A program made the translations under genes and the position numbers. A model generated the notes under the pieces. That model was given only the letters and a program-made list of their open reading frames with translations. It was not told the DNA's origin and made no database searches. A stretch of 64,000 nt of DNA from an uncultured Eubacteriales bacterium. Its GTDB lineage: Bacteria; Bacillota; Clostridia; Oscillospirales; Acutalibacteraceae. Positions 2,555-55,444 of the stretch are shown one piece after another; positions within the stretch are counted from its first letter, which is position 1; every line of letters starts with the position of its first letter. The DNA is taken from the NCBI GenBank assembly GCA_934486755.1, contig CAKSQT010000001.1, positions 2,226 through 66,225 on the forward strand, read 5' to 3'.

Positions 2555-4265
2555 CTATATCCGCCTCCTTATCAATGGGGTGCTTTAAAGCACGTCTGTA
2601 AAATCCGTAGCAGAAACCGAAGTTAATAAGCAACACGCCGATTACCGCAAGCATGACCCAAATTATATTGCTCATATTGCGTGTAACGAATTTTACCGTA
2701 TATTTTGCCGAATCCTTGATACGTTTTATTATTTCTTTTACGCCGCCCTCGGAATCGCCGCTGTTGTCGTTTTCGTCAATCTCAGCGGCTGTATCGCCGT
2801 CCGAATCTTCGTCCGAGTCGGTATCGTCCTGCGGCAGCTCGGCTATTGCGTCCATAAGCGAGGAAAGCAGTTGTCCCTCATTCTGCAAAAGAGCCTTTAC
2901 GCCGTCGTCAAGCATTTCGTAAGCGTAGTTTGCGATATTAACATCAATCTCATCGTCACGCGTAACCGTTTCGGGCGTTAACGACAAAACATAGGAAAAA
3001 TTATCCTTAAAAGCGTCTGCCGCTTTAATCTCGGCGGCTTTCTCAGGATTTTGAGATATTTTCAGTTCCTCGATCTTCTTTATGAGCTTTTCGAGCAGTT
3101 CCTTTTTATCTGCCAGCATTTCTACGGCATATTTATTTATCTCGTAATCGCCGAGCGCCGAAAGTGCGTTGCGCACACCCGTTTCATCACCTGTTTTGAC
3201 CGTTTCGGGCGTCAGGTCGAAAACCCATTTAAACGGCTGGGATAAATAATCGTTCACCGCTTCTTCGGCGGCGGCGCGCTGTTTCTTTTCAAGCTCCGCC
3301 CTTTCCTGTTCTTCAAGCTCGTCTTTAATCTGCGCTTTCAGGAAAGCAAGAACGCTTTTCAGCGTGTTTTTCTGCGGCATCAGTTTTGCCTGAGCCTGAA
3401 CCGACAGCTTTTCCATTTCGGTTATAGCGGTTTCGAGAGCAACAACGTCCTTAAAACTGCCGTCGGCATTTTTATCTGTCGTCACATTGAGCTTGGTGCG
3501 TGACAAAGCATAACTATGCTCCTGCTTATATTTTTCAACCTCAGCATTTACAGAGTCGTTTCCGCTTTGCTCGCGCAGGCGGTTATATTCTTTAATCGCA
3601 TTTGCAAGCGTGCTGTAATTGGTTACCAGCGGTTTTTCGGAGCCACTCAATGCCGTATACTTATTCCAAGCCGATATAATCCGTTCGTTGCAGGCATCTG
3701 TATAAACGACGGGATTATCTATTGCGTTTATCGCCGCTATTACCGCGTTAACATTATTGACGGCATTACCCGTTATGCTTCCGCCTGTCATAGTCCCTAC
3801 GGCAATATCCTTCATAGCGTTGCCTTCAAAAACATACAGCATTTCAACCGACGGTGTGATTACCGTATCCGAAAACGAGGATTTTGCGGCAAAGGTAAAT
3901 TGAAAAAGTTTACCCGACGTCAAGGTAACTTTATCAAGAGAATCCCAAATAAGCCTTACCTTACCGTTTTTATTGCTTATGGTACAGCCGTCCATATTCT
4001 TAACAAATATCTTTTCGCTGTTGCCCGAAAACGCCACTTTGCTTTCATCATACGCAATTACAAGGGAAATACCGCTGATTTGCACAGCGGCACTTCCTGT
4101 ATATTTTACGGATACCTGAAACGCGTCGTTTGCCTTTACTCCCCCGACGTCCTCAACAGACAGTGACACCGAAGTATCGGCAAACGAGGTTATGGCAACA
4201 ATCGGAAGGATAACTGTAAGCGTAAGAATAACGGCAAATATCTTTTTAAAAATACCAGTTCTCAC
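2544..4265 (-). CDS. type I membrane protein with N-terminal cohesin-like beta-sandwich domain, long helical repeat stalk, acidic tract and C-terminal TM anchor
   Basis: 573 aa with a signal peptide (MRTGIFKKIFAVILTLTVILPIVAITSFA). It is followed by about 140 aa with a cohesin-like pattern (VSLSVEDVGG..FQVSVKYTG..ISLVIAYDESKV..GKLFQFTFAA). Internal helical repeats (..LTPETVKTGDE.. / ..LTPETVTRDDE..) and a DTDSDEDSDGD acidic tract precede a single C-terminal TM (IIWVMLAVIGVLLINFGF) and a short basic tail. There is no LPXTG motif. Paralog of 27442-29154. Confidence 0.5.
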   Translation of the reverse strand: MRTGIFKKIFAVILTLTVILPIVAITSFADTSVSLSVEDVGGVKANDAFQVSVKYTGSAAVQISGISLVIAYDESKVAFSGNSEKIFVKNMDGCTISNKNGKVRLIWDSLDKVTLTSGKLFQFTFAAKSSFSDTVITPSVEMLYVFEGNAMKDIAVGTMTGGSITGNAVNNVNAVIAAINAIDNPVVYTDACNERIISAWNKYTALSGSEKPLVTNYSTLANAIKEYNRLREQSGNDSVNAEVEKYKQEHSYALSRTKLNVTTDKNADGSFKDVVALETAITEMEKLSVQAQAKLMPQKNTLKSVLAFLKAQIKDELEEQERAELEKKQRAAAEEAVNDYLSQPFKWVFDLTPETVKTGDETGVRNALSALGDYEINKYAVEMLADKKELLEKLIKKIEELKISQNPEKAAEIKAADAFKDNFSYVLSLTPETVTRDDEIDVNIANYAYEMLDDGVKALLQNEGQLLSSLMDAIAELPQDDTDSDEDSDGDTAAEIDENDNSGDSEGGVKEIIKRIKDSAKYTVKFVTRNMSNIIWVMLAVIGVLLINFGFCYGFYRRALKHPIDKEADIDES

Positions 4266-12190: not shown

Positions 12191-12352
12191 TGTTATACCA
12201 CCTTTCAGCCTATTTGAAGATATGTATAACGGCTTGTATATTATTCGTGATAAATTTAGGCTGACGAGGGTTGAACCCTCGTCAGCCTAAATTGTTTGTG
12301 ACTAATGCAGTTTTAGGCAAGTTTGGTGTCAACGCTTGCCGTAATAGTAAGG

Positions 12353-12769
12353 CTATTTTATAGTGGGACCGAAATTGTCGGGATTTGTGTCGATTATATT
12401 GCTTGACGATTCGGAGCTTGACGGCGCGGTTGACGGGGTTTTGGAGCTGTCCTCGCTCTTTTCGCCGCTGTTTCCGCTTGAAATTGTTTTGCTTTGGGAG
12501 TCGGCTGAGGTGTTGCCTGTTTTGCCGCTGTTTTGAGCCTTTGAACCGCTTTTTGAGGCGGTTTTGCCGTCCTTTTTATCATTATTTTTGCTGTCGCTTT
12601 CCGCTTTGCTTTCGTCTGCCGCGGTGCCGCTTTCCTGCGAGACAGAATCTGACGGTGCGGAGGACGAAGACGGTGCGGTTTTTGACGAATTATTATCGGC
12701 TTTTTTCTTACAGCCGACGAGCGCCGCAAGGGCTATGATACACAATAAAATCGCTGTTATTCTTTTCAT
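12353..12769 (-). CDS. Ser/Lys-rich low-complexity lipoprotein with conserved C-terminal 'IIDTNPDNFGPTIK' motif
   Basis: 138 aa with a lipobox (LAALVGCKKK). The body is disordered and S/K/D-rich. Its last 14 residues are almost identical to the C-terminus of the 43-aa small ORF at 16346-16477. Confidence 0.6.
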   Translation of the reverse strand: MKRITAILLCIIALAALVGCKKKADNNSSKTAPSSSSAPSDSVSQESGTAADESKAESDSKNNDKKDGKTASKSGSKAQNSGKTGNTSADSQSKTISSGNSGEKSEDSSKTPSTAPSSSESSSNIIDTNPDNFGPTIK

Positions 12770-16345: not shown

Positions 16346-16477
16346 TTACTTGATAACGGGACCGAAATTATCGGGATCAGTGTCAATAAAACCGTTATCC
16401 GTCTGCGAAGTCAGATCTGCCAAAGTATCGTTAGGGCAACGTTCCGTAAATTCAATGACAGGTTTCATATACCGCAT
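16346..16477 (-). CDS. small ORF, 43 aa (MRYMKPVIEFTERCPNDTLADLTSQTDNGFIDTDPDNFGPVIK) immediately upstream of the 1103-aa gene
   Basis: Minus-strand frame with ATG at 16475-16477 (or 16466-16468) and TAA at 16346-16348. AAAGGCGG lies 7 nt upstream. The C-terminal 'IDTDPDNFGPVIK' is near-identical to the lipoprotein 12353-12769 C-terminus (the DNA is also about 80% identical over 45 nt). The N-terminal 'KPVIEFTE' resembles 'TPVLEFEA' of the 12870-13001 ORF. Confidence 0.45.
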   Translation of the reverse strand: MRYMKPVIEFTERCPNDTLADLTSQTDNGFIDTDPDNFGPVIK

Positions 16478-16600: not shown

Positions 16601-17005
16601 ATTAGATTTTAGATAGTAGATATTAGATATTAGACGCCGGTGTGCTTCGCACCCGTAATAATTCGCAATGCGTAATGCGTAATTCGCAATTCGTAATTAA
16701 TATAATCCATTTAACGGGATAAAAAATTAGTGTTTAGCGAAAAAATAAGATTGATATACCTGCCTCCCTCTGACGAGGGAGGTGGATTTTTGCGCAAGCA
16801 AAAAGACGGAGGGAGAGACAAATTCCGCATAAAAACACGGTTTTTTCTCTCCCTCAGTCAACTTCGTTGACAGCTCCCTCGTCAGAGGGCGCCAACAAAT
16901 TTTTCAATTTTATCTTCGCTAAACTCTAATTTATATCCGCGCGGAGCGCACATTTGTCTAATATCTAACGTCTAAAATCTAACATCTAATTTCTAATGTC
17001 TGATA
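16601..17005. repeat. MITE-like structured repeat element, copy 1 (core about 16724-16934 with 15-bp TIR AATTAGTGTTTAGC/GCTAAACTCTAATT; flanked by inverted 7-bp tandem arrays and GC clamps)
   Basis: The core is about 93% identical to 55253-55444. It contains five hairpins. H1 is 16763-16782 (CCTCCCTC-TGAC-GAGGGAGG). H2 is 16787-16804 (TTTTTGC-GCAA-GCAAAAA, a GNRA loop). H3 is 16805-16859 (13-bp stem). H4 is 16857-16871 (GTCAAC-TTC-GTTGAC). H5 is 16873-16892, the inverse of H1. Heptamer arrays TTAGAYA x5 (16601-16635) and AATKCGY x5 (16656-16700) lie on the left. An inverted TCTAAYR x7 array (16957-17005) on the right overlaps the last 5 codons and stop of the HK gene. Confidence 0.6.
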
Positions 17006-18675
17006 TCCAATTCAACCTTAGGCATTACGGCGGAGCAGATAGTTCCTACGCCCACTTCGCTTTGAATTTTCAAGCCGTAATTATCGCCGTAAAGCAGCCG
17101 CAGGCGCCAATTAACATTACGCAGTCCCACGTGTTTCCACTCGCTTGACAGCGGAGCGTTGATATATTCGATAAGCTCGGCGAGTTTTTCCTCGGTCATA
17201 CCGACGCCGTTATCCTTTACCGAAACGGTAATATCGTTTTCGGTTTCGGTTATATTCAGGGTTATGCGCGGGTTTTGCACGTCCTCGTTTGCAAAGCCGT
17301 GATAAACGGCGTTTTCGATTATCGGTTGCAGGCAGTTTTTAAGCAAAACCGTATCGCCCAATTCGCCCGAAATATCGGGAATTTCAAAATTGATATTTAA
17401 GCCGAACCTTATTTGCAGAACCTCAAAACAGCTTTTGCAAACCTCTATTTCGCTTTTGACGTTTGAGAACATACTCGTAACGTCAATACCGCTTCTCAGC
17501 ATTTTAACGGTGCGCTGAATACAGTAGGATATTTTATTATCCGCGCCGAGCTCGTCAAGCGCTATCCAATTTATTGCATCAAGCGTGTTATACATAAAAT
17601 GCGGCGAGAGCTGTAATTGCAGGGATATTATCTGCTGCTGTCTTAACGCCGCAACCTGCCTGTCCACCGAGGCGTTGGCAGTTGCGTATTTATTGGCGAG
17701 CTGTTTTACCGAATTTCGGACGTAGGATACCTCGTCAATGCTTTCAAACGGCGACAGCGGAAAATAATCGTCAAGCGAGAAAAGCAGCTGCTTTATCGGT
17801 CTGTAAGTTGCAACCGAGATAAAATAAGCCGTGCCGACAACAACGACAAACACCAGAATAAAATACATAAACTGCCGCAGATAAAGGGAATTATAATTCG
17901 CCCTATAATAATTCTTAAAGCAGATAGAAACTATATTGAGGTCGGTGTTATCGAGCTTGCGGGAATAGACCTTGCAGGCTTTGCCCTGAGCATAATCAAC
18001 ATTTTTTGAGAGATCTATTTTGCTTTCGCAGAAGTCCGCAATGTTTTTATCAAGCGTATCGGTGCGCACCGATACGGCGATATTGCCGCTTTCGTCGCAT
18101 ACGAAGCCGTTACGGTCGCCCATATCGTCGCTGCCGAGGATTTGTTTGCCGAAAAACATTGTGTTTACAATTATATATACCTTATTCTGATATGAGTAGG
18201 CGTTATTTTTCAAAACAAAGGTCATATAACCGTTATTTGATTTATACATTTCAAGGTTTTTATATTCGCCGAGCTTTTCCGACATATAGGGCTCCGTATT
18301 TCCGACGGTTACGCTGTCGTTATCCGAGGAAATGCGCACGCCGCTTATGTAATCTATCATATACATACCCGTAGAAAGCTGTTTTTCTATATTTTGTATT
18401 CTTGTATGATAGTCGCTTTCGCTCTTATCGGGGATCTTGATAGTGGCATAGGTCGCCGCCGCCGAGGAAATACGGGCTATTGAAACAACGGCGTTATCGT
18501 TCATTCGGGTAAGCCGTTCGGTCTCGGCTATATACATCTGTTTATCAAGCGACTTTTTATTCCCGACAAAAATGAACGCAAAAAGGGTAAGCGCTATCGC
18601 CGATACCGCAAAAGTTATGATAAAAAGAGTTCTTTTGAAATTTTTGTAACGAACGGTTCCTCTGAAATGAAACAA
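16993..18675 (-). CDS. sensor histidine kinase, YesM/LytS-like (two N-terminal TMs, extracellular sensor domain, HisKA_3-type H-box, HATPase_c)
   Basis: 560 aa, TTG start after AGGTGA. 'SPHFMYNTLDAINWIA' is a YesM-type His-kinase motif. 'ENAVYHGF..DNGVGMTEEKL..GVGT' is the ATPase domain. Confidence 0.8.
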   Translation of the reverse strand: MFHFRGTVRYKNFKRTLFIITFAVSAIALTLFAFIFVGNKKSLDKQMYIAETERLTRMNDNAVVSIARISSAAATYATIKIPDKSESDYHTRIQNIEKQLSTGMYMIDYISGVRISSDNDSVTVGNTEPYMSEKLGEYKNLEMYKSNNGYMTFVLKNNAYSYQNKVYIIVNTMFFGKQILGSDDMGDRNGFVCDESGNIAVSVRTDTLDKNIADFCESKIDLSKNVDYAQGKACKVYSRKLDNTDLNIVSICFKNYYRANYNSLYLRQFMYFILVFVVVVGTAYFISVATYRPIKQLLFSLDDYFPLSPFESIDEVSYVRNSVKQLANKYATANASVDRQVAALRQQQIISLQLQLSPHFMYNTLDAINWIALDELGADNKISYCIQRTVKMLRSGIDVTSMFSNVKSEIEVCKSCFEVLQIRFGLNINFEIPDISGELGDTVLLKNCLQPIIENAVYHGFANEDVQNPRITLNITETENDITVSVKDNGVGMTEEKLAELIEYINAPLSSEWKHVGLRNVNWRLRLLYGDNYGLKIQSEVGVGTICSAVMPKVELDIRH

Positions 18676-20192: not shown

Positions 20193-20218
20193 CCTCCCCT
20201 TTTTAAATAAAGGGGAGG
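20193..20218. terminator. strong 10-bp stem-loop (CCTCCCCTTT-ttaaat-AAAGGGGAGG) between the dockerin-protein gene and the response regulator gene; possible terminator/RNA-stability hairpin
   Basis: Perfect inverted repeat. A T-run follows on the plus strand (20233-20239), but the U-tract is poor on the minus-strand transcript that would terminate the 1825-aa gene. Confidence 0.35.
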
Positions 20219-20242
20219 CTTTGAGGATATTTTTTTACCGAA

Positions 20243-55164: not shown

Positions 55165-55444
55165 AAATTAGAGTTTAGATTTTAGATGTTAGACATTAGA
55201 CGAATGTGCGCTCCGCGCGAAATATTAAAAATAAATTAGAGCTAAGCGAGATAAAATAAGATTGATACCCCTGCCTCCATCTGACGAGGGAGGTGGATTT
55301 TTGCGTAAGCAAAAAGACGGAGGGAGAGAAATTTTCGCATAAAAAGGCGGTTTTTTCTCTCCCTCAGTCAACTTCGTTGACAGCTCCCTCGTCAGAGGGA
55401 GCCAACGGCATTTTCAATTTTATTATTGCTAAACTCTAATTTAT
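55165..55444. repeat. MITE-like structured repeat element, copy 2 (perfect 15-bp TIR TAAATTAGAGTTTAG at 55165-55179 / CTAAACTCTAATTTA at 55429-55443)
   Basis: Core 55253-55444 is about 93% identical to 16742-16934 in the same orientation. The TTAGAYN heptamer array (55171-55201) and GC clamp gaatgtgcgctccgcgcg (55202-55219) lie inside the TIRs here. That clamp is identical to the inverted right clamp of copy 1. The right TIR contains the stop codon of the upstream dockerin gene. Confidence 0.6.

Follow-up and report, generated by a model that had tools for sequence, protein, structure and literature searches.

The question raised by this stretch of DNA (the window: 64,000 nt of contig CAKSQT010000001.1, a human-gut metagenome scaffold of an uncultured Eubacteriales bacterium) is what to make of two structured repeats of ~210 nt each, at positions 16724–16932 and 55233–55442, which are 89.6% identical by direct reading and alignment of both regions. 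An earlier note on the same DNA had offered two interpretations: a non-autonomous element of the MITE kind (miniature inverted-repeat transposable element), or a structured 5′ leader RNA. The two structured repeats are confirmed as a real feature of the window, with a 31-nt core motif that is matched twice there and in none of 100 shuffles. We consider it likely that they are derivatives, devoid of an open reading frame (ORF), of a cassette in which two inverted arms enclose a DUF559 nuclease gene, and that they act at the DNA level.

A family of paired arms conserved as DNA palindromes

Reading of the flanks of family loci showed that the conserved element consists of two arms of ~50 nt, inverted around a variable centre. 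Each arm comprises, in order, a pyrimidine x-motif (yCCCTC), 1–2 bases, hairpin B, an A and hairpin A ([G/C]CTCCC-loop-GGGAG[C/G]), and arms are of an A type (TCCCTC-AGTCAGCTTCGCTGAC-A-GCTCCC..GGGAGC) or a B type (TCCCTC-CGTCACGG..CCGTGCC-A-CCTCCC..GGGAGG). When genomes, one for each species, were scanned with a degenerate 23-nt pattern taken from the A arm, which lies in the right half of the element, at least 120 loci were returned in several phyla, mostly Oscillospiraceae and other Clostridia; isolates of Caulobacter, Phenylobacterium, Bifidobacterium and Megasphaera, as well as a Deinococcus hopiensis assembly, are also among the matches listed. The range of the family takes in Clostridia of the gut, Alphaproteobacteria, Deinococcus and Bifidobacterium, and it extends to viral contigs. 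A set of 40 gut Clostridia loci was fetched with a 23-mer of the window-type B arm, which is present on several contigs per metagenome in several metagenomes, and BLAST matches of the element in plasmids and phages carry no annotation. The family is multi-copy and breaks assemblies, and several short contigs of the same species as the window end within the element, as assemblers do at repeats.

Arms were located with a covariance model (CM R1) whose structure was set by hand, since RNAalifold on a MAFFT alignment gave none owing to misalignment, and an nhmmer arm profile was too insensitive for B arms. Within 726 kb the model identified 262 arms, and additional ones came to light in further loci; densities reach 5–10 per 8-kb locus in some cases, and arrays of alternating orientation occur (e.g. 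locus L003, 2373–3118). Neighbouring arms are inverted in 97 cases (67 ‘-+’ and 30 ‘+-’) and in the same orientation in 11, and ~80% of arm pairs are heterotypic, with one A and one B arm.

The covariance-model test of base pairing that the earlier note had called for came out positively for the arms: both hairpins covary and 97.6% of cells are paired, with double-sided changes at 12 of 14 pairs (208 cells), a result reached in 0 of 500 shuffles. G-U pairs occupy only 4 of 1636 cells (0.2%) in the arm hairpins. Pairing is thus of the Watson-Crick kind on both strands, which points to a DNA palindrome and not to an RNA read from one strand. While the 215-nt element has a very stable predicted fold (−99.7 kcal/mol, z = −12.7 on the + strand), as a leader RNA would, the opposite strand folds about equally well (z = −11.1). 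In the window copies, hairpins H1, H2, H4 and H5 of the earlier note are borne out by the family-wide covariation, but the central stem, H3, is not kept in the family and occupies the position at which full-length relatives have an ORF. The UCG/CCG difference between the copies, previously read as preserving H3, does retain a G-U pair; it is a one-sided C/U change, however, and not a compensatory pair. A hammerhead-like CUGAxGAG in the loops was also considered and rejected, as the loops vary freely among subfamilies.

As a separate observation, arm elements in higher-GC gut Clostridia (L133–L172, e.g. L138, L141, L147 and L165) form mosaics with other short repeats, including CTGTCATTCTGAGCGnAGCGAAGAATC, which resembles TGTC-tagged repetitive extragenic palindromes (REPs), TTCGTAGGGGrCGATGCCCACATCGyCCC and CCACCTTCCCCTCnAAGGGGAAGGC. 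The mosaic modules vary between samples at one site (L143 compared with L138, L139 and L169), and in L137 one arm is nested inside another.

Full-length relatives carry a DUF559 nuclease gene

Among arm pairs lying 200–4000 nt apart, several from unrelated taxa have a spacing of 349–446 nt and enclose an ORF. These ORFs match PF04480 (DUF559) with E values of 1e-25 to 1e-31, and also NCBIfam PRK09767; they encode 112–122 aa of the Vsr-like PD-(D/E)xK type, for which the sole related solved structure is that of a Neisseria gonorrhoeae ‘endonuclease-like protein’ (PDB 3HRL). The residues D, E-x-D, H, D and R are invariant in the 10 ORFs compared, which come from 5 phyla, a pattern that fits an active Vsr-type site. 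Steczkiewicz et al. (2012) had already placed VSR, DUF559 and DUF2726 in a group together with Vsr and a homing endonuclease of a group I intron.

A profile search of six-frame ORFs from ~1.5 Mb of fetched loci recovered 16 DUF559 ORFs, of which 8 have an arm on either side in one and the same arrangement and 5 have a single arm. The cassette has a fixed order of B arm, 5–20 nt, start codon, ~112 codons and A arm, and each arm supplies part of the translation signals of the gene. The GGAGG of the B arm (..GACGGAGGGA..) stands 7–9 nt 5′ of the start codon in most copies (16 nt in L156), a spacing that identifies it as the ribosome-binding site, and it is the T>G difference between B and A arms that generates it. 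At the other end, the reading frame crosses the x-motif of the A arm and enters its hairpin B, where TCC CTC AGT CAG CTT CGC TGA is read as SLSQLR-stop; this coding function accounts for hairpin B being almost invariant in A arms and freely covarying in B arms.

Searching proteins with a single cassette ORF returned at least 8000 candidates, the best 120 of which are all at least 83% identical to it, nearly all exactly 122 aa long including the tail, and mostly located on contigs of 0.5–1.5 kb; clusters of DUF559 homologues have up to 1270 members. In viral contigs the A-arm pattern occurs in 88 stretches, and the DUF559 ORFs found there have both arms in 7 of 7 cases. A plasmid tblastn sample, in which loci were not selected by their arms, provided 6 distant copies of 34–46% identity, 4 of them bracketed (Deinococcus proteolyticus, D. 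aetherius, Sinorhizobium meliloti and Sphingomonas). The inverted repeats in this sample are 35–95 nt long, 82–96% complementary and 361–512 nt apart, with CCCTCyCCC-loop-GGGrGAGGG hairpins.

Annotated DUF559 proteins of Sphingomonas and Synechocystis (L183 321–857 and L186 423–869) have long N-terminal extensions (e.g. GPLPQPLPPAGGEP and PSPRPSPTGEG), which are probably start-codon misannotations because they translate the upstream repeat arm. One cassette, P0225, occupies the same fixed site in 10 samples. Beside it, an unrelated 167-nt MITE is present in L174 and L175 (~2995–3160) and absent from L173 and L176; its terminal inverted repeats (TIRs), GGCATCACCGCGCAATTC...GAATTGCGCGGTGATACC, are flanked by TTTAAG on both sides, and this clean filled/empty pair explains the length polymorphism at the P0225 site.

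The window copies as probable ORF-less derivatives of the cassette

An end-to-end alignment of the arms (A6) places both window copies in a series with L156, L062 and L078. L156 has an intact ORF between arms that are near-identical to those of the window, including the CCTCCATC variant of copy 2; L062 is similar but has an in-frame stop (a pseudogene); L078 retains ~45 nt of the ORF 3′ end; and in the window copies the ~330-nt ORF is gone, with no ORF sequence left. The loss of the ORF with retention of both arms makes them internal-deletion derivatives of the MITE kind. Compared with the canonical sequence, the A arm of the window has two changes, G>A and C>T, which are both hairpin-compensatory and synonymous, so that SLSQLR-stop is kept. 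Few pairs hold an ORF at all, namely 5 of the 67 ‘-+’ pairs (L001–L099 and the window). The parts of both copies are given in Table 1.

Table 1. Parts of the two repeats and the modules beside them, in window coordinates (CM, covariance model; TRF, Tandem Repeats Finder)
Feature	Position	Strand	Content	Basis
Heptamer array ATTAGAT x 4.9	16601..16634	+	Left of copy 1	TRF
Second heptamer array, TAATTCG x 5.7	16659..16698	+	Similar ATTCCGA/ATTACGC array adjoins an element in L146	TRF
Left half of outer palindrome, copy 1	16724..16761	+	Holds 15-bp TIR; ~70% complementary to 16894–16932	
B arm, copy 1	16762..16818	+	GCCTCCC-loop-GGGAGG, TGG, hairpin TTTTTGC-GCAA-GCAAAAA, GACGGAGGGAGAGA; GGAGG is the Shine-Dalgarno sequence in full-length relatives	CM R1 match 16763–16816, − strand, E 2.5e-6; alignment with ORF-bearing L156
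Central spacer, copy 1	16819..16846	+	Weak hairpin CCG...CGG; position of DUF559 ORF in full-length relatives	Alignment A6
A arm, copy 1	16847..16893	+	x-motif TCTCCCTC, hairpin GTCAAC-TTC-GTTGAC, hairpin GCTCCCTC-GTCA-GAGGGCGC; SLSQLR* still in frame	CM R1 match 16848–16892, E 1.3e-9; translation
Right half of outer palindrome, copy 1	16894..16932	+		
GC-rich hairpin and heptamer array TCTAATA x 7.9	16938..17011	+		TRF (array 16957–17011)
Heptamer array and GC-rich segment, copy 2	55165..55219	+		TRF (array 55168–55200)
Left half of outer palindrome, copy 2	55233..55272	+		
B arm, copy 2	55273..55329	+	CCTCCATC variant common to ORF-bearing L156	CM R1 match 55274–55327, − strand
Central spacer, copy 2	55330..55356	+		Alignment A6
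A arm, copy 2	55357..55403	+		CM R1 match 55358–55402, E 2.4e-13
Right half of outer palindrome, copy 2	55404..55442	+	Last bases overlap dockerin stop codon 55441–55443	

From B arm to A arm (first to last conserved hairpin) the two copies are 93.9% identical. The cores previously delimited at 16742–16934 and 55253–55444 do represent two copies, but their identity, put at ~93% in the earlier note, measures 91.2%. The 15-bp TIRs described at that time are present: in copy 1, AAATTAGTGTTTAGC (16724–16738) pairs with GCTAAACTCTAATTT (16918–16932) at 14 of 15 positions, and in copy 2, 55233–55247 pairs with 55428–55442 at 13 of 15. They are part of a lineage-specific outer palindrome that is AT-rich, has ~40 nt per side with ~70% complementarity, and encloses the arm pair, outside the conserved core of the family. 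Neither this palindrome nor the adjoining heptamer arrays were found among the 120 genome loci listed (L001–L120), and the only two copies known with these outer ends are those of the window.

The position of both copies relative to genes agrees with the earlier description. Stop codons of the histidine kinase gene (16993–16995) and the dockerin gene (55441–55443) lie inside repeat sequence of the copy 1 region and of copy 2, respectively, and both copies have the same orientation relative to their flanking genes, as expected of a leader; across 25 elements with callable neighbours, however, the four possible gene arrangements are represented 9, 6, 5 and 5 times, which amounts to no orientation bias. 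A promoter-like site (16562–16535, − strand, for the 1103-aa gene) lies between copy 1 and its downstream gene and a terminator-like hairpin (55164–55152, − strand) between copy 2 and its own, both being consensus matches only. The element is also missing from the syntenic locus of a relative, L132, which reads rplK-rplA-[313 nt]-FG-GAP-response regulator-histidine kinase-DUF1385-prmC-recA with no arm and no dockerin gene. This ‘empty’ locus is a genus-level comparison only; homologues of the FG-GAP protein are missing from the range of 99% to 59% identity, and its nearest relatives are at 58%. Rfam gave no match at the gathering threshold for the window, none relevant at E ≤ 10 for the region and none for 18 canonical relatives.

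The full-length cassette reads [B arm]-DUF559 endonuclease gene-[A arm], with the B arm supplying the ribosome-binding site and the A arm the last six codons and the stop. We propose that the arms may be the sites recognised or cleaved, in folded or duplex form, by the Vsr-like DUF559 nuclease, that cleavage followed by break-and-repair copying could spread the cassette, and that arm-only copies would spread, or would once have spread, in trans through a nuclease encoded elsewhere in the genome. The two window elements would then be passengers in 3′ and intergenic space whose effects would be incidental at most, for example through the stop codons that they replace or the stable hairpins that they form when transcripts read through. 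Pairing of an A with a B arm leaves three systematic mismatches (C.C, G.G and G.A), which is suggestive of a substrate fitting a relative of a mismatch endonuclease.

Several points weigh against this account. No DUF559 ORF was detected by hmmsearch in six-frame ORFs of the 64-kb window. No empty site was found, as all same-species contigs, from other samples, carry copy 2 at the same place, and junctions of ~25 distinct copies revealed neither a target-site duplication (TSD) nor a target consensus. A bracketing arm pair is missing around three DUF559 ORFs of the fetched loci and around the copies of Synechocystis and E. coli. The association of ORF and A arm is inflated in L001–L120, which were picked by a pattern that is itself the 3′ end of the ORF, and the viral loci share this bias; the sole sample without it is the one obtained from plasmids by tblastn. 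To our knowledge, a PD-(D/E)xK nuclease alone has no strand-transfer activity, and for this reason the spreading mechanism is a conjecture.

BoxC/PIT triplex-motif repeats and the ycjD gene of E. coli

Among known repeats, the arm family comes closest to those of E. coli with an ‘intrastrand triplex motif’, known successively as BoxC, PIT and ‘TM’ (Bergler 1992; Hoyne & Maher 2000; Holder et al. 2015, PMC4666352). BoxC was first noticed near envM/fabI. K-12 has 23 copies, all of them intergenic and without preference for a strand; every inverted pair is made up of one type A and one type B unit, and the repeats occur in >260 genomes, with an association with rearranged loci (Holder et al. 2015, PMC4666352). 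The same authors state explicitly that they found no transposase, integrase or other mobility function nearby.

Both groups of repeats have three consecutive blocks (Y, R and mirror-R) that permit a hairpin plus third strand with C-G-G triads, and both are intergenic, multi-copy, without strand bias and widespread in bacteria. The window-family arms obey the mirror rule, the x-motif being 96% identical to the hairpin-A strand when read in mirror image (85.8 ± 0.7% in 1000 shuffles) and minority variants being mirrored between the two in 56 of 65 cases, and also the heterotypic-pair rule. Under the sequence rule a triplex would be possible for them. What sets them apart is the second ‘loop’, a hairpin B of 13–25 nt as against 1–6 nt in ITxF; the published finder, restricted to loops of 1–6 nt, would miss them. 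A further difference is that window-family arms bracket DUF559 genes, whereas no mobility genes were reported near BoxC/PIT (PMC4666352).

A connection also exists in E. coli itself, where the DUF559 gene ycjD lies beside fabI. The 56 nt at its 3′ end are a dispersed repeat, found in 5388 of 5426 E. coli genomes at a median of 14 places per genome, and this repeat is a BoxC element. In K-12 the ycjD stop lies within CACCCTCTCCC-TGAaa-GAGCGAGGGGG, and a full CCCTCGCCCC-tct-GGGGAGAGGG-tta-GGGTGAGGGG is located 180 nt 3′ of the gene. At the same locus (L277, NC_000913.3 1351030–1351840), ~45 nt of the ycjD 3′ end are duplicated downstream (ggagacggtgctggagaatattc..), followed by a complete BoxC-type motif, and a perfect 19-bp hairpin (TCACCTCATTCTGACAAGA/TCTTGTCAGAATGAGGTGA) stands 5′ of ycjD; these features suggest remnants of a second cassette.

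These resemblances allow the tentative proposal, which we hold as possible and below even expectation, that DUF559 is the missing mobility or maintenance factor of the whole BoxC/PIT-type class of triplex-motif repeats. A DUF559 gene between triplex/hairpin arms would in that case be an autonomous selfish element of an unrecognised kind, with a range that takes in Clostridia, Deinococcus, Alphaproteobacteria and, as ycjD, E. coli; its nuclease would recognise folded arms with G.A, G.G and C.C mismatches, which arise from heterotypic pairing, and so lead to repair copying. Orphan arm pairs in their thousands, the two of the window among them, would descend from it as non-autonomous copies. The literature searched, as far as its accessible text extends, gives no link of DUF559 to BoxC/PIT, flanking repeats or mobility, with DUF559 in no title or abstract, and it contains no match to the literal sequence of the element.

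Alternative explanations

The best-surviving alternative is that the arm pair is the primary repeat and serves as a homing site, with DUF559 as a secondary, free-standing homing invader and the window copies as uninvaded targets. Homing endonucleases make use of Vsr-like nucleases, and I-Bth0305I is placed in a PD-(D/E)XK clade with DUF559; the ORF is always at the same central position, and most arm pairs have none. Like Vsr-like (EDxHD) homing endonucleases and free-standing homing endonuclease genes, of which I-Bth0305I is an example, the cassette is built on a small selfish nuclease gene of the Vsr/DUF559 clade and occurs in distant taxa and in phage contigs. Genes of that kind, however, reside in introns or inteins, and the target of their homing is a single allelic site, whereas the DUF559 cassette has its own inverted arms, many copies within a genome and abundant ORF-less derivatives. 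The arms are moreover adapted to the ORF, both in the B-arm T>G change that makes GGAGG and in the coding of SLSQLR-stop by hairpin B of the A arm; ~80% of ORF-less pairs retain the A/B asymmetry; and L078, L062 and L086 show decay of the ORF in place. We therefore regard uninvaded homing targets as an unlikely description of the window copies.

A second possibility is that the arms are REPs or bacterial interspersed mosaic elements (BIMEs, or REPINs) moved by a Y1 HUH transposase (RAYT), with DUF559 as only a frequent neighbour (for REP/BIME/REPIN, RAYT and the GTAG/CGTC families, see Di Nocera et al. 2013, PMC3733652; Bertels & Rainey 2011). Shared features are extragenic palindromic units that form inverted dimers foldable to one hairpin (97 inverted against 11 direct), clusters of alternating orientation as in L003, a preference for heterotypic dimers such as those of E. 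coli Y/Z REPs and the reported CGTC/GTAG families, and the absence of a visible TSD at the ~25 junctions compared. The window core sits within an outer palindrome, and for some REP families, too, insertion into a larger palindrome of the host has been described (Di Nocera et al. 2013, PMC3733652). By definition, though, a REP has an unpaired GTAG/CGTC tag ending a palindrome of 20–40 nt (Di Nocera et al. 2013, PMC3733652); the arm units are longer, have two hairpins and lack such a tag, the AGTC/CGTC at the foot of hairpin B being partly to largely base-paired. The gene found between the arms is the PD-(D/E)xK nuclease DUF559, in fixed geometry and with shared start and stop signals, no scan for Y1 transposases having been made. 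Taken together, these differences render a RAYT-driven origin very unlikely. Two related candidates were also set aside: TIRYT, as its GGGGWSAS TIR motif does not fit the arms (nor do RAYT/REPIN tags), and the GANTC-centred CIR elements of Caulobacter, as the arms have no conserved GANTC.

The MITE-like interpretation of the earlier note holds to the extent that the window copies are ORF-less derivatives of a larger multi-copy cassette. As MITEs do, they are short, have both ends in common with a longer coding element and belong to a class that far outnumbers it; outer 15-bp TIRs are present and the inner arms are inverted repeats as well. The findings differ from it in detail: elements with the same arms encode a DUF559 PD-(D/E)xK nuclease and not a transposase, no consistent TSD was visible at the junctions of ~25 distinct copies, the TIRs lie outside the core, and the ends are structured and hold parts of the translation signals of the gene. 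Descent, as a classical MITE, from an insertion sequence that has a DDE transposase and 15-bp AAATTAG...CTAATTT ends would fit the TIRs (13–14 of 15 positions), the size of ~210 nt and a possible TA flanking copy 2. This origin is nevertheless highly improbable, given that copy 1 lacks a TA on its left, that outer ends of this type are restricted to two known copies with none among the 120 loci listed, that the widely distributed conserved part is the inner arm pair, and that no transposase was seen in the window (no scan was aimed at Y1 transposases).

A structured cis-regulatory or small RNA, e.g. a leader common to two envelope/sensor loci, is scarcely credible, as it must contend with the absence of any Rfam match even at E ≤ 10, the near-absence of G-U pairs, an opposite strand that folds equally well, a central stem unconserved across the family, the lack of orientation bias and the syntenic locus without the element.

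Heptamer modules and other repeats around the window copies

The heptamer arrays noted earlier as flanking the repeats were all recovered by TRF, four in number and within ~150 nt of the two elements, and a heptamer pattern scan yielded 12 matches against 0.09 expected. The module at 16938–17011 overlaps the last codons and stop of the histidine kinase gene (16993–16995). Its first part (16938–16992) recurs in inverted form at 55165–55219, with 91% identity to the reverse complement, and for this reason the GC hairpin plus heptamer array is regarded as a separate module that can stand on either side and in either orientation. Such modules, (TCTAANN)n after a short GC hairpin and (ATTCGYA)n, were found only beside arm elements and recur beside elements in another low-GC gut species; examples from outside the window are L137 2711–2745 and 5341–5361(-), L157 5583–5617 and 3049–3083(-), and L146 2301–2328. 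An orthologous site has 3 units in L137 and 5 in L157, which indicates that the array behaves as a variable-number repeat.

Other repeats were also observed in the window. A solitary CAAAGCCTCCCC-tttatttaaaa-AGGGGAGG hairpin lies at 20193–20230 (− strand), just 3′ of the 1825-aa gene, and matches only the hairpin-A part of the B arm (CM E ~0.001); this may be what is left of an arm, or else a terminator-like hairpin of unrelated origin. A near-perfect palindrome with 33-nt arms at 12240–12306, just 3′ of the 138-aa gene, contains GGCTGACGAGGGTT/AACCCTCGTCAGCC, and its words CTGACGAGGG and CCCTCGTCAG are those of the hairpin-A loops in the window elements. A 41-nt repeat (12354–12394 and 16347–16387, 80% identical; also L121 8199–8330 and 11675–11806) corresponds to two paralogous small ORFs of 43 aa, each directly 5′ of a larger gene without a Pfam match (the 1103-aa and 138-aa ORFs).

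Implications

The window element is, for its host, an ordinary selfish repeat. For annotation, this means that the window elements are to be read as selfish repeats that overwrite the 3′ ends of two genes, and not as regulators of envelope/sensor operons. The wider family appears to link an abundant, uncharacterised nuclease family to a long-known orphan repeat class, a link unreported in the literature searched. BoxC/PIT repeats have been catalogued since the 1990s without an associated mobility function, while DUF559 is among the most abundant uncharacterised small nuclease families (at least 8000 candidates from one query) and is seldom mentioned in the literature searched. If the two belong together, both puzzles would become testable with one purified protein and one oligonucleotide, and the connection, if true, would offer an explanation for many of the short ‘hypothetical proteins’ and assembly breaks in gut Clostridia metagenomes.

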